Below the pieces are notes generated by a model. The model worked only from the letters and a program-made list of their open reading frames with translations, was not told the origin of the DNA and did not search any database. A program made the position numbers and the translations under genes. Positions 27,824 to 34,087 of a DNA stretch of 64,000 nt are shown here, piece by piece; the first letter of the stretch is position 1; every line of letters starts with the position of its first letter. The DNA lies in the NCBI GenBank assembly GCA_963797555.1, contig CAWCPV010000014.1, positions 320,001-384,000 of the forward strand, written 5' to 3'. The DNA comes from an uncultured Gammaproteobacteria bacterium (GTDB taxonomy: Bacteria > Pseudomonadota > Gammaproteobacteria > CAWCPV01).

Positions 27824-29848
27824 ATGGCGTTCAGCCTTCACCTCGAGGCCCATTTTCAGCCCAGCGGGGATCAGCCCCAGGCCATCCGCGAGCTGGTGGA
27901 GGGACTGGACGCCGGCGAGGCATCCCTCACGCTCCTCGGCGTAACGGGGTCGGGCAAGACCTTCACTATCGCCAACGTCATTCAGGCCCTGCAACGGGCC
28001 ACGCTGATCCTGGCTCCCAATAAGACGTTGGCCGCTCAGCTCTACGGCGAGTTCCGGGGGTTCTTTCCGCACAACGCGGTCGAGTATTTCGTCTCCTATT
28101 ACGACTATTACCAACCCGAGGCGTACGTTCCCTCCACCGATACTTACATCGAGAAAGACGCCTCTATCAACGAGCACATCGAACAGATGCGCCTGTCGGC
28201 GACCAAGGCGCTACTCGAACGGCCGGATGCCATCATCGTCGCCACTGTCTCCGCCATCTACGGACTGGGCGATCCGCGCGCCTACCTCAGTATGGTGTTG
28301 CATCTGAAGCGCGGCGATGTCGTCGACCAGCGGCTCATCCTCAGGCGCCTCGCCGAGCTGCAGTACACGCGCAACGACGCAGAGCTGCGCCGCGGCACGT
28401 ATCGGGCACGAGGAGAGGTGATCGACATCTTCCCGGCCGAGTCGGATCGCGAGGCGGTGCGGGTGGAGCTGTTCGACGACGAGATCGAGCAGCTCTCCTA
28501 CTTCGAGCCCCTCACCGGGGAGGTGTTGCGCCGGGTTCCGCGGCTGACCGTCTACCCCAAGAGTCACTACGTCACTCCGCGCCAGACGGTGCTCGATGCG
28601 GTGGAGAAGATCAAGGCGGAGCTGACCGAGCGTCTGACCGAGCTACGCGGCCAAAACAAGCTGGTCGAAGCGCAGCGCTTGGAGCAGCGCACGCGCTTCG
28701 ACGTCGAGATGCTGCTGGAGCTCGGTTACTGCAACGGCATCGAGAACTACTCCCGGCACCTCTCTGGGAGACAAGCCGGGGAGCCCCCGCCCACCCTGTT
28801 CGACTACCTGCCGGAGAAGGCTCTCCTGGTGGTGGACGAGAGCCACGTGACCATCCCCCAGTTGGGCGGTATGTACCGCGGCGACCGCTCCCGCAAGGAG
28901 ACGCTGGTGGAGTACGGGTTCCGATTGCCCTCCGCCTTGGACAATCGCCCGCTGCGTTTCGAAGAGTTCGAGGCACGCTCACCGCAGACGGTATTCGTTT
29001 CCGCGACCCCGGGGCCCTACGAGCTGCAGCGTTCCGGCGGGGTAATCGAACAGCTCGTGCGGCCGACGGGGCTGGTGGACCCCGAGGTCGAGATGCGTGC
29101 CGCCAGCACCCAGGTGGACGACTTGCTGTCCGAAGTGCACCGGCGCGTAGCCGCAAACGAGCGGGTACTGGTCACGACGCTCACCAAGCGCATGGCCGAA
29201 GACCTGACTGAGTATCTCGACGAGCACGGCGTGAAGGTCCGTTACCTGCACTCGGACATCGATACCGTGGAGCGGGTGGAGATCGTCCGGGACCTGCGGC
29301 TTGGCAAGTTCAACGTCTTGGTGGGAATCAACCTGCTGCGCGAGGGTCTCGACCTCCCGGAGGTGTCGCTGGTCGCGGTGCTGGATGCCGACAAGGAGGG
29401 TTTCCTGCGCTCGGAACGCTCTCTGATACAGACCATCGGGCGCGCCGCTCGCAACCTCCACGGCAAGGCGATCCTGTACGCCGACCGCTCCACGGGCTCC
29501 ATCGAGGCCGCGATGCAGGAGACCGAGCGGCGGCGGGGCAAACAGATCGCGCACAACGAGTACCACGGCATCACCCCCATGGGGATCCAGAAGGCAGTCC
29601 AGGACATCATGGAGGGTGCCTACAACGTCGGTCCGGGTGCGCCGCGGCGTGCGGCGCGCGTGGCCGAGCCCCTATCGCCCTATGCCTCACTGCCTCCCGA
29701 AAAGCTCATCCGCACCATCAAGCAGCTCGAGCAGCGAATGTACAAGCACGCCCAGGATCTGGAGTTCGAGGAGGCGGCCCGGTTGCGCGACGAGATCCGC
29801 TGCATCAGGGAGCAGTTCGTGGGGGCTGGGGAGGCGAAGGTCGGTTAG
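27824..29848 (+). CDS. uvrB: Excinuclease ABC subunit B
   Basis: [39 protein letters not shown], and C-terminal UVR domain [11 protein letters not shown]. Confidence 0.98.
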
Positions 29849-29871
29849 AGGCCGCTTCGCCTGCCGACGCG

Positions 29872-29901
29872 TTGCACGCAACACCGCAGCCGTGCTATCT
29901 T
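29872..29901 (+). promoter_or_regulatory. Putative sigma70 promoter of tRNA-Val
   Basis: TTGCAC-18bp-TATCTT with extended TG, about 30 bp upstream of the tRNA. Confidence 0.45.
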
Positions 29902-29932
29902 TTTCGCCATTCTCAGGCGCATAGCTCATTTC

Positions 29933-30007
29933 AGGCGCGTAGCTCAGTGGTAGAGCACTACCTTGACATGGTAGTGGTCGGTGGTTCGATCCCACTCGCG
30001 CCTACCA
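29933..30007 (+). tRNA. tRNA-Val(GAC)
   Basis: Acceptor AGGCGCG/CGCGCCT-A-CCA, D arm GCTC-AGTGGTA-GAGC, anticodon arm CTACC-TTGACAT-GGTAG, T loop TTCGATC. Confidence 0.97.
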
Positions 30008-30136
30008 GCTTTCAGAGGGTGACAAAGGGTTCGGGGTAATGAGCGGGGAATTTCCCCGCCCGAGTTGTCGACCGACCGGGGGCGTTACCTGTAACGCGCT
30101 ACGGTGCTGTTACGATGCCGCTCTGGCAGCAGCAGA

Positions 30137-30198
30137 CAAAAAGAACCCCGCTCAAGGCAGGGTGAAGGAGGAGAGGGGCGTTACCACCACCCCTATGG
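30137..30198 (-). ncRNA. Candidate small RNA with anti-SD CUCCUCC motif and intrinsic terminator
   Basis: Minus strand TAGGGGTGGTGGTAACGCCCCTCTCCTCCTTC-ACCCTGCCTTGAGCGGGGT-TCTTTTT; TGcTAGCAT -10 upstream. Confidence 0.4.
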
Positions 30199-30285
30199 CG
30201 CAAGGGGATGCTAGCACGTCGGATGTTACGAAATGCTTACGGCTGACGTACAGGACTGGCCGGGCAATGGAGAACCGTTGTCATT

Positions 30286-30470
30286 TGTGACGGTTCTCGA
30301 CCACCGCAGGGCGCGAATCGACAGGGTGTCGCCGTGGGGTGGCTCAGTCGGGCGATCCGGCCTCGGGCGGTATCAGGGTGCAGGGTCGGCGCCGTCTCGT
30401 CCCCCAGCGCCGCAGGAAGTGGCTCCCTGAGGCCAAAACCCCTGCTCAGGGCGGGGTCCAGGGGGAGGAG
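30286..30470. repeat. Non-coding direct repeat, copy A (upstream of cargo gene)
   Basis: GTGACG.T.CTCGAC.AC...AATCGACA...GGGGTGGCTCA...GCGA.CCGGCCT.GG..GGTATCAGG...GCTCA.GGCGGGGTCCAGGG is shared with 31160-31390. Confidence 0.75.
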
Positions 30471-30587
30471 TATCACCCTATATAAGTCAGGCGAGATCGC
30501 GGTGCCTGGGATGTCAGTGTGTCGGGTACCGAGTGGCGGGTCAGCGCCTCCGTGCCAGGCACGGCGGACACACCGGGGATCGTGCGA

Positions 30588-31118
30588 ATGAGTTCCACCA
30601 GAAAGCTTGAAGAAGCGCAGTTCTTTCTCGAACTGCTTGATGCGCTTGACCAGCGTCGGCGGCCACTTACCCACGCGGGAGACACGGCAAAGGAATCCTC
30701 GTATCTGTTCGCAGCAGTACTCAACTCCTTCTATTCGGCTATCGCTATCATGCGCGATGAAGAAGGCGTTGACATTGAAGCATTCGTCGACGCGAACCCG
30801 GAGATCTACGCGAGAGCAAAGGACGGAGGTGAACGCGCCAAGACCGTGCACGTCAAGCATACTGATGCCGCATTCTCCGGCTACATCCCGCCGAAGTTCA
30901 ATGAGGCGGGCGCTGACTTCAGAAACACGCCGCTCCTCATCCAAGAGGCACGCATGGCCAGAAAAGGTGGGCCGGGCGCGATCTTTGGGCCAGATCACTA
31001 CATGTTCATTGAGCTGCACGGCGAGTTGAGGCACGTCACTAAGTTCTGTTACGACCACTTCTACCGCCTTCGGGACTTTCATGCCAAAGCTCAAACCAGG
31101 CCGCAAGCCGTGGCTTAA
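30588..31118 (+). CDS. Hypothetical protein (helical, possibly HEPN-like)
   Basis: 176-aa ORF of lower GC than core genes; KLEEAQFFL...YLFAAVLNSFYS and RAKTVH (RxxxxH). Confidence 0.7.
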   Translation: MSSTRKLEEAQFFLELLDALDQRRRPLTHAGDTAKESSYLFAAVLNSFYSAIAIMRDEEGVDIEAFVDANPEIYARAKDGGERAKTVHVKHTDAAFSGYIPPKFNEAGADFRNTPLLIQEARMARKGGPGAIFGPDHYMFIELHGELRHVTKFCYDHFYRLRDFHAKAQTRPQAVA

Positions 31119-31159
31119 CCCGCCGCCCAGGGCGGAAATCAGGCCAGCTTTTCTCAAAA

Positions 31160-31390
31160 CGTGACGATCCTCGACTACGGCATGAGCGACAATCGACACG
31201 GTTGGGTGCCCGAGCGCGCGGGGTGGCTCAACCGAGCGACCCGGCCTGGGGTGGTATCAGGTGAAGGGGCGGGAAGATCTCGGCGCCTGGACGGCCAGAC
31301 GCAGCCTCACAGGTGGCAAAACGACAGGATCAGCAGCACTCCCACCAGCGCCGGATGGCCACAGCCCGCTCAAGGCGGGGTCCAGGGTGG
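31160..31390. repeat. Non-coding direct repeat, copy B (upstream of cargo gene)
   Basis: Diverged copy of 30286-30470. Confidence 0.75.
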
Positions 31391-31417
31391 GCGCTCCGAT
31401 GGTGCGTGGGATGACGT

Positions 31418-31979
31418 ATGAAGCGCGTGGTTAAGTACATTAGAGAGAATCACCAATGGCTATTCTCCGGCATCGGCGCCAGTATATTGCTGGGACTGGG
31501 CGGGTGGCTCGCTTATTATTTCTTCTCCTGGTTGCACACTGAGCCCACTCCGCCAACAGCACCATCTATCCACGGCTCGCCTCCCGTGGCAACTGTGCCA
31601 TCAGGCATACAGGTTACTACTCCCGAACCCTCCCGGAAGGTGACACCACGAACCATTATGGAGCTATTATGGAGCAGATTGATTCGGCGCGACCGATGCA
31701 ACGCGCCGACATAGCAAGGTCTTTTGTGGACGCACCGGTTGTATGGGACTTACTATTTTTCGGCGCCGACGAAATTGACGATCAGCGCGTGCACCTTTCT
31801 TTTTTTCTCGGACCGAACATCCAAACGTAGTTGTTTCGTGTGTGGTGTCGACCGCAGAAGGGAACAAGCTTAGGTTACTCGATAAAAACGCGCCGGTGCG
31901 GGTCAGTGGAACGATAGAGAGCATTGATGAAGCCATCGATGTAATCCGCCTCAAGGATGCCAAAGTAGTGCCACGATGA
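31418..31979 (+). pseudogene. Membrane-anchored protein with probable C-terminal OB-fold, frameshifted
   Basis: N-terminal TM (QWLFSGIG), Pro-rich linker, ATTATGGAGC duplication at 31655-31675, second shift near the T-run at ~31800, C-terminus PVRVSGTIESID...IRLKDAKV. Confidence 0.6.
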
Positions 31980-32101
31980 ATCCGAAAGGCGGTGGGAATG
32001 GACGTGGCGCTGGTCGATGAGGACTTCAACCTGGGGGGACCGCTCCCCCCCGCGTGAAAGCGTAACGGCACCGTTACGTTTTAGATTATTCGGAGAGCGT
32101 C

Positions 32102-32836
32102 ATGACGCCGACCAGCAAAGATATCCCATTGAATGAGCGGATCATCTTCGCTCTCGACGTGGGTACTCGCGAAGAGGCCGAGGTATGGGTCGAGCGCCTC
32201 GGAAGCCACGTGCGCTTCTACAAGGTGGGCCTCCAACTGTTCCTGGGTGCCTGGTTTCCGGTCATCGACATGATCACGGATCATGGTCACAAGGTTATGG
32301 TCGACCTCAAGTTCTTCGACGTGCCCGAGACGGTGAAACAGGCGGTCGAGCAGTTGAAGGACCGGGGTGTGACCTTCGCCACCGTGCACGGCAACGACCC
32401 GATACTGCGCGCCGCGGTCGAGAACAGAGACGGCGTGAAGATTCTAGCCGTGACGGTGCTCACCAGCTTCGACGAGAGCGACATGCGGGAGATGGGATTC
32501 ACGAGGACCGTCGAAGAGCTGGTATTGATCCGCGCCAGGAAGGCCCTACGCCTCGGCTGCGACGGCATCGTTTCTTCCGGTCTGGAAGCGCCCCGGCTGC
32601 GGCGCGAGTTGGGGCACAACCTCCTCATCGTCACCCCGGGTATCCGCCCCGGCTCGAACATCGAGGAACCCCCGGACGACCAGAGACGCATCGTCACCGC
32701 CCAACAAGCTATCCTCAACGGCGCGGACTACGTGGTCGTGGGCCGTCCCATCAAGAACGCGCCGGACCCCATCGCCGTGGTCGAATCCATGCAACGCGAG
32801 ATCGAGCGCGGCCTCGCATCACCCCTCGCCACCTGA
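32102..32836 (+). CDS. pyrF: Orotidine-5'-phosphate decarboxylase
   Basis: IFALDV, YKVG, DLKFFDVPETV, AVTVLTS, VTPGIRP, DDQRR and VVGRPI. Confidence 0.96.
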   Translation: MTPTSKDIPLNERIIFALDVGTREEAEVWVERLGSHVRFYKVGLQLFLGAWFPVIDMITDHGHKVMVDLKFFDVPETVKQAVEQLKDRGVTFATVHGNDPILRAAVENRDGVKILAVTVLTSFDESDMREMGFTRTVEELVLIRARKALRLGCDGIVSSGLEAPRLRRELGHNLLIVTPGIRPGSNIEEPPDDQRRIVTAQQAILNGADYVVVGRPIKNAPDPIAVVESMQREIERGLASPLAT

Positions 32837-33190
32837 TCTCACGCAACACTCTGGCCCCGTCCGCCCTCAGCCAGCCCAGGCTCCCAGCCCATCCGGTCGC
32901 GACGCGCTCGCGCCGCGGATGAAGGCGCTGCTCAATGCACCGGCCTTCGACGGACAGGCCCCCAACGAGGGCAAAACGAAGGCGTTTACCGCGCACCCGG
33001 AACGTTTGATCGGAGCGCGCTCACGAACTGGCACACGCGTAATCGATCGAACCACAAGTGTTTGCACGCGCCGCTCTGACAGGGGTCGACGTTGGTGCTC
33101 GGAGCTTCGACATCGGAGATCGGAGTCCCGAAATCGGGAATCGGAGTTGTGACATCGTAGCTCCTGGCCTTGCGGCTCCTGCCCTCCTGC

Positions 33191-33216
33191 GCGCCCCCAG
33201 CCGGGGGCGCTTTTTT
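33191..33216 (+). terminator. Strong intrinsic terminator
   Basis: GCGCCCCC-AGCC-GGGGGCGC-TTTTTT. Confidence 0.8.
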
Positions 33217-33439
33217 GGGGCGGCCAGCCCCGCGGAGAAGGCCGGGTCTTGCCGGGACAGAAATGTTATCTGCTCGTGAAGGTGCCGTGAGATCGGGCGG
33301 CCACACTAATGACCATCCACGGGTAACGCCGGCTCGAAAGCCTCCAGTTTCCGTGGGTCGGTTCTCAGGGACGAGGCCGCGCGGAGCGCGGTGGGCGCGG
33401 AGTCCGAACCCCTTTCGAGCAAACTGCAGGAGAGAGTCG

Positions 33440-34087
33440 ATGAAAGACACCAACACGCTTCTGACTTCTGCGATGTCTGGCATGGTCGCTGTCGGCCTGA
33501 TGGGCGCCGGGCAGGCCGCCCACGCCAAACAGGTCACGCTGCCACCCGTGCCCCCCTTTAAGCTGGAGGTGCCGGCTGGGAACACCGCGTTCCTCGTAGG
33601 TCACGCCATCGGCACCCAGAACTACGTCTGCCTGCCCTCGGGCGCTGGCTTCGCTTACGTACTCTTCACGCCCGAGGCCACGCTGTTCGACGACCATGGT
33701 AAGCAAATCATCACCCACTACTTCAGTCCCAACCTCGCCCCGTTTGACCCGTCTGACCTTGACAAGATTCGCGCCACGTGGCAGGCCTCGGACACGAGCA
33801 TCGTCTGGGCCGCGGTGTTGAACCCAGCAGAAGACTCCGCCTCCCACGCCACCGACCCCGACTTCGTCGCGGAGGGTGCCGTAGCCTGGCTCAAGCTTAC
33901 GGCGGTTGGAACCCAAGACGGACCGAGGGGCGGCGACACGCTCTCGGACACCACCTTCGTCGAGCGGCTGAACACCTCTGGAGGGCTCGCACCGGCGGAC
34001 TGTACCTCGCTAGCAGACGTCGGCAAGGAGGCGTTCGTGCCTTACACGGCCGACTACTTCTTCTTCTCGGCCGACGACGGCAAGTAG
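33440..34087 (+). CDS. Secreted DUF3455-like protein
   Basis: Signal peptide; AIGTQNYVC, PEATLFD, HYF, AVAWLKL, RLNTSGGLAP and VPYTADYFF. Confidence 0.85.
   Translation: MKDTNTLLTSAMSGMVAVGLMGAGQAAHAKQVTLPPVPPFKLEVPAGNTAFLVGHAIGTQNYVCLPSGAGFAYVLFTPEATLFDDHGKQIITHYFSPNLAPFDPSDLDKIRATWQASDTSIVWAAVLNPAEDSASHATDPDFVAEGAVAWLKLTAVGTQDGPRGGDTLSDTTFVERLNTSGGLAPADCTSLADVGKEAFVPYTADYFFFSADDGK

Follow-up and report, generated by a model that had tools for sequence, protein, structure and literature searches.

The window, the 64,000-nucleotide stretch of DNA that we analysed (C14:320001-384000), contains a 2.1-kb islet between a tRNA-Val gene and pyrF. From the tRNA gene onwards it consists of a partial module, module A, a gene, module B and a second gene, followed by pyrF; this order and the coordinates of the initial annotation hold. 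Each full module is followed by an ORF on the plus strand, at 30591-31118 after module A and, broken, at 31418-31979 after module B. The genes had been described as lower in GC content, and they are (50-56%, against 64-70% in the modules; the flanks have about 65%). The window also lacks an integrase, as claimed: none of the 25 PF00589 matches in the genome lies within it. The features, in window positions, are as follows.

29933..30007, plus strand: tRNA-Val(GAC), the probable integration target (ARAGORN; Rfam tRNA, 69 bits)
30008..30082, strand not assigned: island arm directly 3′ of tRNA-Val(GAC)
30083..30118, no strand given: GTAACG/CGTTAC iteron block (CGTTACCTGTAACG ... ACGGTGCTGTTACGATGC)
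30137..30215, minus strand: partial unit (nhmmer with the unit profile, E 0.0024)
~30286-30515: module A, whole
30286..30400: module A, 5′ part (GTGACGG..GGGGTGGCTCA..GGTATCAGG), with a counterpart in module B only
30433..30516: module A, family unit (hairpin, TCCAGGGGG, CCCTATATAAG, GAGATCGCGGTGCCTGGGATGTC)
30591..31118, plus strand: cargo 1, the ORF directly after module A
~31160-31417: module B, whole
31160..31300: module B, 5′ part and motif-1-like stretch (GAAGATCTCGGCGCCTGGACGGCC)
31307..31385, minus strand: decayed, frameshifted copy of a hydrophobic mini-ORF
31365..31417: module B hairpin, TCCAGGGTGGG and motif 1 tail (GGTGCGTGGGATG), ending at the start codon of cargo 2
31418..31979, plus strand: cargo 2, a broken gene, after module B
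32061..32074, minus strand: lone palindromic iteron copy (CGTAACGGCACCGTTACG region), 28 nt before the pyrF start
32102..32836, plus strand: pyrF, chromosomal flank outside the element (name from the initial annotation and from reading the translation)

The tRNA-Arg(CCT) island contains a displaced tRNA-Val fragment to which the first ~33 nt of the arm, taken together with the 3′ end of tRNA-Val(GAC), are 87% identical (61 nt, E 2e-13). On the minus strand the partial unit carries a terminator-like hairpin (30163 to 30145) with a T-run after it; next comes a CCCCTATGG motif, beyond which the unit is truncated. The partial module of the initial annotation is real: positions 30147-30169 are 74% identical to module A and belong to a longer stretch that matches other loci (78% over 102 nt, E 5e-16). 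At the other end, the lone iteron copy marks the right edge of the islet; the 14-nt iteron core is the only sequence that this end has in common with the family described below.

We found no family match for the islet ORFs, no core satellite gene, and no second copy of the tRNA-Val 3′ end (att repeat) within 40 kb. A search of positions 28000-34000 against Rfam (E≤1) gave the tRNA alone with a plausible score, plus two further chance-level rows, and no sigma-70-like promoter was found in 29800-32200, where 0.8 were expected. In three soil-metagenome runs of one study, contigs of ~2x coverage match 30664-31011 and 31167-31522, identical except for one inserted G at 31270; none of these contigs reaches the frameshift sites of cargo 2 or spans the islet.

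The cargo genes

Cargo 1 encodes a protein of 175 aa that belongs to a conserved family of ~170 aa. Its RxxxxH motif, pointed out in the initial annotation as HEPN-like, is R82-x4-H87, conforms to the Rx4-6H pattern and is invariant in 30 of 30 aligned sequences. HEPN identity itself is not proven: we detected no HEPN match in Pfam, PADLOC or NCBIfam and no Foldseek match at E≤0.001, and the VIA Z-scores (8.4 for 7ae2_A, 8.1 for 8xdj_A and 7.0 for 3o10_A) are tied with those of unrelated helical bundles (p130Cas and catenin, Z 8.7). The ESM Atlas yielded unnamed clusters only, plus a 12% lead to lambda Ea47. The Rx4H family recurs in toxin-antitoxin and defence-type neighbourhoods, with no conserved neighbour of the homologues among 12 flanking ORFs compared. 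We conclude that cargo 1 is HEPN-like and that its family is a candidate accessory nuclease; the gene may be an HEPN-type RNase-like accessory or defence gene.

Cargo 2, a TM + OB-fold-like gene in the initial annotation, encodes an N-terminal transmembrane protein and is spread over three frames by two frameshifts, at an 11-nt tandem duplication (31655-31676) and at a T7 run (31800-31806), which might be assembly errors. No homologues were found with the 53-aa middle piece, and the 63-aa C-terminal piece matches long repeat proteins only, two of them built of DUF5666 repeats.

The modules are mosaic copies with a common hairpin

The two modules had been presented as the same ~200-bp sequence. 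The repeat is real: 103-113 nt align at 75% identity (E about 1e-11 in a search of the whole 5.3-Mb genome), and 23-33 nt around the hairpin common to both at 85-91%. Their sameness was overstated, since only 107 of 190 positions (56%) are identical across the 3′ two thirds, module B has an extra segment of ~40 nt and ~28 nt of module A are missing from it. The modules are thus mosaic and not identical, and we saw neither sharp conserved boundaries nor a crossover-site signature in them. Both copies have the same orientation, each ending just upstream of a plus-strand gene.

The 3′ part of each module finds a better or longer match in another island than in its sister: that of module A reaches 76-78% identity across 77-86 nt with the tRNA-Lys(TTT) and tRNA-Lys(CTT) islands, and that of module B matches the tRNA-Pro(GGG) island at 83% over 60 nt (E 2e-10) and, across 175 nt, at 66%. 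Modules A and B share their 5′ ~110 nt with each other and with nothing in other family members or elsewhere searched. By eye we read these 5′ parts as a diverged unit, which the unit profile does not detect there. The initial annotation had named decayed coding sequence as one of the findings that would undo its reading; this applies to part of module B, the decayed mini-ORF copy, and in the 5′ parts six-frame tblastn against the genome returned noise (best E about 0.002, low-complexity). The minus-strand translations of the two 5′ parts resemble one another (PDT..GR.ARLSHP) and are too short to judge.

A non-coding family linked to tRNA genes

The part of the modules that runs from the hairpin to GAGATCGCGG, together with the GTAACG iteron block just 3′ of tRNA-Val, forms a family within the genome. 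Iteron block and unit occur 3′ of 8 of the 41 tRNA genes: Val-GAC, Pro-GGG, Arg-CCT, Lys-TTT, Glu-CTC, Val-CAC, Lys-CTT and Leu-TAA. A profile built from five units has eight matches at E<0.01 in the whole 5.3 Mb, and every one of them lies 3′ of a tRNA gene, no more than about 1 kb away; module A, one of the five training rows, scores E 4e-19. The iteron block (CGTTACCYGTAACG / ACGGTGCYGTTACG) lies 60-111 nt 3′ of six tRNA genes. One weak iteron match, 692 nt from tRNA-Ser(GGA), falls within a coding region that looks dnaX-like by eye and was left out of the count.

The first genes beside the unit differ from locus to locus and are unrelated (no match across loci at E<1e-6). The initial annotation had proposed to test whether the module recurs next to variable genes and a conserved recombinase. 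Its 3′ part does stand by unrelated genes at seven other loci; the only recombinases in the family are tyrosine integrases of the tRNA sites, 8-13 kb away. The Arg-CCT and Glu-CTC islands contain displaced 3′ fragments of tRNA-Val(GAC), and in the Val-CAC island a 116-aa gene separates the hairpin from the CCCTATGG/GAGATCGCG half of the unit. The longest array seen anywhere has two to three units.

The initial annotation had also suggested a search for the module across genomes: no match was found in 40 and then in 399 other genomes of the same class (two candidates scored per genome in the larger search, one genome left unscored). Beside cargo 1 homologues, nine loci in other genomes gave coding similarity only. 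Patterns for the 5′ part and for motif 1 were both missing from IMG/VR, and metagenome contigs had none of the former. Five metagenome loci (three distinct sequences) did match the motif-1 pattern, and we treated these as chance matches because they have no tRNA gene and no further similarity to the islet. Outside this genome we found the non-coding family only as a 24-nt iteron string, in three IMG/VR contigs.

Intact family members are satellite-type islands

Two family loci are intact integrative elements of ~9.5-10 kb with perfect direct repeats of a tRNA 3′ end. In the tRNA-Lys(TTT) island (L041) a 46-nt perfect repeat of the tRNA-Lys 3′ end lies 9.5 kb away, and in the tRNA-Val(CAC) island (L042) a 54-nt repeat lies 9.8 kb away. 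L041 encodes an integrase with PF00589 and Arm-DNA-bind_3 and a further relative, L044, one with PF00589, so that integrase and att features of PICIs are found in these relatives; L042 has its repeat and no recognisable integrase. Genes for regulation, replication and packaging are present as well. The relatives encode an excisionase-type regulator (HTH_17 / phrog_66) and a primase-replicase (PrimPol and AAA_25 in L041, DUF3987 in L044, primase-like phrog_29234 in L042). A small terminase is found in L041 and L042 (Phage_Nu1 / phrog_57), with a homologue in L044, and a capsid protein (Phage_capsid_4) in L042 and L044, with a remnant in L043.

Taken together, the family loci encode a P4-type integrase, an AlpA-like regulator, a primase-helicase, a Nu1-like small terminase and a capsid protein. 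TerS, capsid and a 90-aa protein recur between loci at 38-64% identity. The non-coding end is common to family members, and integrases and replicases differ. Accessory genes of toxin-antitoxin and conflict type in the islands include YoeB, RelE-like, RES/Xre and Trypco2. Among the ORFs chosen for the Pfam and PHROGs searches, of which many were matchless, no portal, head-tail connector, TerL, tail or lysis gene was matched, and tblastn with the capsid found no match in 50,697 phage records.

The family thus exists and is strictly tRNA-linked, with intact members that have att repeats and satellite genes and with variable genes at a conserved end. The initial annotation had seen in the islet an undescribed, integrase-less array for gene capture. 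This proposal is not supported: the recurring sequence is the integrase-distal end of tRNA-integrating, PICI-like islands, whose intact members possess att repeats and a P4-type integrase.

Origin of the islet

We consider it likely that the islet is the decayed remnant of a PICI/cfPICI-like satellite island that integrated at tRNA-Val(GAC), with the modules as diverged copies of the family end. We class it as a remnant because its link to the satellite family is through non-coding homology only. Signs of decay in the window are the missing tRNA-Val repeat (40 kb) and core genes, the broken cargo 2 and the decayed mini-ORF. What survives would be the integrase-distal end, namely the tRNA-adjacent arm, the iteron block, the minus-strand terminator hairpin and the accessory-gene region. 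The modules would be extra, diverged copies of the non-coding end. Each would combine the hairpin with the motifs CCTATAGG and GAGATCGCGGCGCC and a small-ORF remnant between these parts, and each would now lie upstream of an accessory gene. Such copies may have arisen by recombination or accretion between family members, with deletion afterwards. The tRNA-proximal hairpin could halt leftward transcription at the island edge, and the iterons may be bound by a conserved island protein, for which the Nu1-like small terminase and the AlpA-like regulator are candidates.

A search for fragments of tRNA or att core inside or between the module copies gave a best alignment score of 30, against a shuffle maximum of 31, and accretion therefore leaves no direct trace in the window. 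This is one of the points in favour of another history, in which the modules are tandem duplications made in situ within one island (of a promoter or leader segment, for example), cargo was replaced later and no second island took part. Their 5′ ~110 nt, common to the two modules only, and their shared orientation, each ending just before a plus-strand gene, fit such a history too. We nevertheless think it unlikely, as each of the 3′ parts of A and B resembles other islands more closely than its sister and the search for sigma-70-like promoters came up empty.

The non-coding unit (iterons, hairpin, CCTATAGG, GAGATCGCGGCGCC) could conceivably be more than a relic. It would then form a functional boundary, a cos/pac-like packaging or recombination signal that doubles as a homology platform on which the satellites of this lineage exchange and stack accessory or defence genes, and the window would be a snapshot of cassette-like turnover rather than of mere decay. 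We give this quite a small chance.

A smaller chance still attaches to the idea that the modules encode a functional RNA or mini-protein, either a minus-strand transcript that stops at the hairpin terminator and contains a small, hydrophobic, toxin-like ORF, resembling a type I toxin-antitoxin system, or a regulatory plus-strand leader of the cargo. The tRNA-Pro(GGG) island has an intact hydrophobic ORF of 26 aa, preceded by a GGGAG box (13 nt before the start codon) and followed by a terminator-like hairpin. Conservation of this DNA extends to module B and the Glu-CTC island; a minus-strand T-run accompanies the tRNA-proximal hairpins. However, this is the sole intact one of four mini-ORF copies, the copy in module B is frameshifted and none in the window is intact. 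A consensus fold of the two modules on the plus strand reaches -50 kcal/mol with three pairs changed on both sides, but covariation cannot be shown with two sequences, the folding energies of eight module segments do not differ from those of shuffles (z -1.84 to +0.83) and Rfam has no match.

Least probable of all is that the module serves an undescribed system of gene capture as its recombination site, with foreign, possibly defence, genes stacked as cassettes: low-GC genes between modules of host-like GC, the recurrence of the unit by unrelated genes at the seven other loci and the Val-CAC gene that splits the hairpin from the CCCTATGG/GAGATCGCG half agree with it, but the window has no recombinase, those of the family are distant tRNA-site integrases, the copies are 56-75% alike with indels and no conserved edges, the module is missing beside the nine cargo 1 homologues and no array exceeds two to three units.

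Interpreted as the eroded accessory end of a satellite-type island, the islet no longer counts as a candidate for an undescribed mobile element. Lineage-specific PICI-like islands, or their wrecks, would occupy at least 8 of the 41 tRNA genes of a single genome, and their shared end sequence is a testable candidate for a packaging or regulator-binding site of these satellites.

Comparison with known systems

The islet resembles integron cassette arrays (attC and IntI) in that unrelated, promoter-less-looking genes are parted by a recurring non-coding element that bears a hairpin. It differs from them in having no IntI, in an element that precedes the genes instead of following them, and in having two to three poorly conserved, tRNA-linked copies. 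Cargo 1 resembles the HEPN toxins of HEPN-MNT pairs (PDB 7ae2, 8xdj) in its helical bundle with Rx4H at a helix start, whereas it has an extra C-terminal hairpin plus helix and no MNT partner.

The islet shares with tandem accretion the stacking of repeated ends at one tRNA gene and the loss of integration and core genes, and the Arg-CCT and Glu-CTC islands likewise have displaced tRNA 3′ fragments; the window copies differ in that no att fragment separates them. That elements integrated at tRNA genes accrete and decay has been described (Guedon et al. 2017, PMC5704250, where Pavlovic 2004 is cited), and a CIME, or cis-mobilizable element, keeps both attL and attR. As no second att repeat was found, we call the islet a remnant and not a CIME.

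P4-like satellites are said, with Rousset et al. 2022 as the source, to have accessory or defence hotspots. Our family is similar in its P4-type integrase with an arm-binding domain, its primase-helicase, its tRNA target and its variable accessory region, but we saw no homologues of Psu, Sid or Delta, and a capsid protein and a Nu1-like TerS are present instead.

The closest likeness is to PICIs and cfPICIs. We know of no described PICI that features the shared non-coding end of iterons and unit, no portal, head-tail connectors or TerL were identified among the chosen ORFs of the relatives, and the islet itself is without a core gene or a second att site. De Sousa et al. 2023 (PMC10085698) give PICIs five core components and accessory genes after the terS homolog. 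The intact relatives are alike in being chromosomal, ~10 kb long and equipped with an integrase, an AlpA-like regulator, a primase-replicase, a small terminase and a capsid protein. In the family, too, the accessory genes are found past terS, at the end away from the integrase, and it is this part that has survived in the window.

The islet between tRNA-Val and pyrF

A 2.1-kb islet between tRNA-Val(GAC) and pyrF holds two non-coding modules, A and B, and two genes, cargo 1 and cargo 2. The features of the region, in window positions, are:

27824-29848, uvrB-like ORF, left of tRNA-Val (named by eye)
29933-30007, tRNA-Val(GAC) (ARAGORN)
30147-30169, partial third hairpin copy
about 30286-30515, module A, related to module B
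30591-31118, plus strand, cargo 1 (175 aa)
about 31160-31417, module B, related to module A
31418-31979, plus strand, cargo 2, with an N-terminal transmembrane segment, read in three frames
32102-32836, pyrF ORF, right of the islet (named by eye and from the initial annotation)

A plus-strand gene begins just past the end of each module, and these coordinates bear out the layout proposed in the initial annotation, including a partial module near tRNA-Val, where we found the third hairpin copy. The cargo genes had also been described as lower in GC, and they are (50-56%, against 64-70% for the modules and about 65% for the flanks). The reported lack of an integrase holds as well: we detected no tyrosine recombinase in the 64-kb window, which contains 0 of the 25 PF00589 matches in the genome. 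The description of one and the same ~200-bp module was accurate only in part. A whole-genome search related modules A and B at 75% identity over 103-113 nt (E about 1e-11), with a second short block around the hairpin at 85-91% over 23-33 nt, but their 3′ two thirds are 56% identical (107/190), and module B carries an extra segment of ~40 nt and lacks ~28 nt of module A. One low-depth metagenome contig differs from 31167-31316 at a single point, an added G after 31270 within non-coding module B. Upstream of the islet, a 16-nt near-copy (94%) of the tRNA-Val 5′ end at 29913-29928, 18 nt before the true 5′ end (TCAGGCGCATAGCTCA / TCAGGCGCGTAGCTCA), could be a trace of an old rearrangement there.

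A non-coding sequence family 3′ of tRNA genes

Searches of the same genome showed that the block after tRNA-Val (CGTTACCTGTAACG...ACGGTGCTGTTACGATGC, 30083-30118) and the 3′ part of the modules (an A-rich run, a CCCCGC-loop-GCGGGG hairpin, TCCAGGGGG, CCCTATAGG and GAGATCGCGGCGCCTGGGGCGTC) recur directly 3′ of other tRNA genes, namely Pro-GGG, Arg-CCT, Lys-TTT, Glu-CTC, Val-CAC, Lys-CTT and Leu-TAA. With Val-GAC included, family sequence is found at 8 of the 41 tRNA genes that ARAGORN counts in the assembly. A profile of the hairpin-and-motif unit, built from five units, gave eight matches at E<0.01, five of them its training rows; all lie within about 1 kb 3′ of a tRNA, with no match away from tRNA genes in 5.3 Mb. 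A weak match to the iterons (GTAACG/CGTTAC repeats) near tRNA-Ser(GGA) was dropped, being inside a coding region that looks dnaX-like by eye. Read opposite to the tRNA, the tRNA-proximal hairpin leads into a T-run and resembles an intrinsic terminator; a terminator scan calls the window copy at 30163-30145. We regard the non-coding end shared across family members as a modest lead. Beyond the iteron block 3′ of tRNA-Leu-TAA (C3:353830-354030) comes a hairpin repeat of another kind, in three copies (GGTGGCTC/GCCGCGCGCGCGGG...), a further case of a non-coding unit repeated where an island ends.

The family loci carry satellite-type islands

Downstream of tRNA-Lys(TTT), its final 46 nt recur without a mismatch at a distance of 9.5 kb; for tRNA-Val(CAC), a stretch of 54 nt does so at 9.8 kb. 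Both are sites of intact integrative elements. Beside its far repeat the Lys-TTT element has a gene for an integrase that carries an Arm-DNA-bind_3 domain; its other products include YoeB, an HTH_17 excisionase/regulator-like protein, a 761-aa PrimPol+AAA_25 protein and a Nu1-like small terminase. In the Val-CAC element there are genes for a primase-like protein, a Nu1-like small terminase, a RelE-like toxin and a capsid protein. No recognisable tyrosine integrase was found in this ~9.8-kb island (L042, C3:323800-334900), where ~1.9 kb beside the far repeat holds only ORFs without a family match, one with a weak zinc-ribbon match. Capsid, DUF3987 and integrase genes with IS insertions are present at Arg-CCT, capsid remnants, IS copies and a RES/Xre pair at Pro-GGG, and a Trypco2 protein at Lys-CTT. 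Between loci, the terminase, the capsid and a 90-aa protein are held in common at 38-64% identity. Integrase arm-type repeats differ by element (GTGTCAC at Lys-TTT, GTAAGTGC at Val-CAC), whereas the iteron block and unit are shared, so the latter belong to the conserved packaging/accessory half and not to the integrase. These results show that this genome has a family of tRNA-integrating islands with a common conserved non-coding end, and that the genes adjoining this end vary between loci. The initial annotation had asked whether the module recurs beside variable genes and a conserved recombinase; its 3′ part does recur, next to variable genes, but without a recombinase in the window. Tn5/IS50-like transposase genes interrupt the Arg-CCT (L044, C6:105900-120500) and Pro-GGG (L043, C14:470000-479300) islands, paired in the former with a DruA-domain gene.

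The islet as a probable island remnant

The start of the islet corresponds to the integrase-distal end of the family islands: tRNA, arm, iterons, terminator hairpin, then accessory-type genes. No core satellite gene was found in the islet, and the tRNA-Val 3′ end does not recur within 40 kb; a lone palindromic iteron copy marks the right edge (32061-32074, 28 nt before pyrF). The Arg-CCT island contains the tRNA-Val 3′ end and the first 33 nt of its flank at 87% identity (61 nt, E 2e-13), and the Glu-CTC island a shorter tRNA-Val(GAC)-like fragment. These displaced ends indicate that tRNA-Val(GAC)-specific islands were once present in the lineage and that island ends are stacked, which fits the accretion and decay described for tRNA-integrated elements in PMC5704250.

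Over 175 nt module B is 66% identical to the end of the Pro-GGG island, and within this match a 60-nt stretch at 83% spans a small ORF on the minus strand. Only the Pro-GGG copy of this ORF, with 26 hydrophobic residues, is intact; the one in module B is frameshifted. The 3′ part of module A shares 76-78% identity with the island ends at Lys-TTT and Lys-CTT. Since the 3′ parts match other islands, each module is a mosaic of family end sequence, and by these alignments each 3′ part is nearer to another island than to its sister module. Accretion and in-situ duplication are not separable in the window because no att fragment lies between the copies. The intact 26-aa mini-ORF, outside the window at C14:478776-478870 and opposite tRNA-Pro(GGG), is preceded by a GGGAG box and followed by a terminator. 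Module B and the Glu-CTC island have decayed copies of it, and its product may be a small membrane peptide or a type I toxin belonging to this family of islands.

The 5′ ~110 nt of the modules (GTGACGG..GGGGTGGCTCA..GGTATCAGG) exist only in these two copies. We found no further copy in the rest of the genome, in 40 and in 399 further same-class genomes (the nearest relatives in the collection), in IMG/VR or in metagenome contigs. Compared with shuffled sequence, neither a tRNA-like fragment nor more stable folding stood out in this part, and it matches no Rfam family. The initial annotation had named a decayed coding sequence as one thing that would refute its reading; the frameshifted mini-ORF of module B is such a sequence, and six-frame searches with the 5′ part yielded noise alone. 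By eye, a different hairpin, a G-rich run, TATCAGG and a GAGATC-like stretch resemble a diverged unit; we keep this as an inference because the unit profile does not detect the 5′ part.

Cargo genes

Cargo 1 is a real gene: 54 of 177 candidate homologues match at E<=0.001 with 40-76% identity, the few with source names being Gammaproteobacteria-type records, and none of those matched has a Pfam domain. The RxxxxH motif noted initially is invariant among 30 aligned sequences (R82, T85, H87 and H90 are all invariant). In the AlphaFold model (pLDDT 81, pTM 0.76) the protein forms a helical bundle and has a hairpin and a helix at its C terminus. A wide structural search placed HEPN toxins among its top rows (7ae2_A, Z 8.4; 8xdj_A, Z 8.1), with the sacsin HEPN domain 3o10_A at Z 7.0, but unrelated bundles score level with these (Z 8.7), which is not decisive for helical proteins, and Foldseek gave no match at E<=0.001. 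HEPN-like is therefore a reasonable description of this accessory gene. Homologue neighbourhoods vary (toxin-antitoxin genes, a DNA methylase, CHAT/patatin genes, IS elements, and an AAA_25 gene beside tRNA-Ser), with no conserved partner among 12 flanking ORFs compared and no module beside the homologues. Cargo 1 is plausibly a candidate defence gene, and the Rx4H protein family a modest lead.

Cargo 2, initially read as a transmembrane and OB-fold-like gene, does begin with a transmembrane segment, but in the assembly sequence it is broken at two places, by a tandem duplication of 11 nt at 31655-31676 and by a T7 run at 31800-31806. The C-terminal 63 residues are similar to DUF5666-repeat proteins, which also score weakly for OB-fold families and so lend that part slight support. 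Public reads cover the islet only as ~2x contigs, and the break sites fall outside them.

Possible function of the iterons

The tRNA-proximal hairpin would end leftward transcription at the island border, and the iterons would bind a protein conserved across the island family. Were this the Nu1-like terminase, the block would be a cos/pac-type site; an AlpA-like protein is the alternative binder. The inner unit copies in the islet would be decaying duplicates. The 24-nt iteron string of the island end also occurs in three viral contigs, within a GTAACG repeat array inside a 292-aa ORF adjoining RecT, which fits a protein-binding iteron and indicates no particular protein. In these IMG/VR contigs (L047-L049; for example L048:2960-3030), a TCTCT repeat stands ahead of the GTAACG/CGTTAC array and the ORF, without a Pfam match, lies downstream of RecT and HTH genes; the array looks like an origin-like or operator-like one common to unrelated elements.

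Comparison with phage-inducible chromosomal islands

We call the family PICI/cfPICI-like and no more, because portal, connectors and TerL were not identified in its islands. As outlined in PMC10085698, phage-inducible chromosomal islands (PICIs) carry, in order, an integrase, an AlpA-type regulator, a primase-replicase, a capsid function and terS, with accessory genes past the terS homologue. The gene set and order of the tRNA islands in this genome match that scheme, and their capsid gene leans towards the capsid-forming kind (cfPICI). We conclude that the islet, initially put forward as a candidate undescribed element, is most likely not a new kind of element but an eroded PICI-like satellite island at a tRNA gene.
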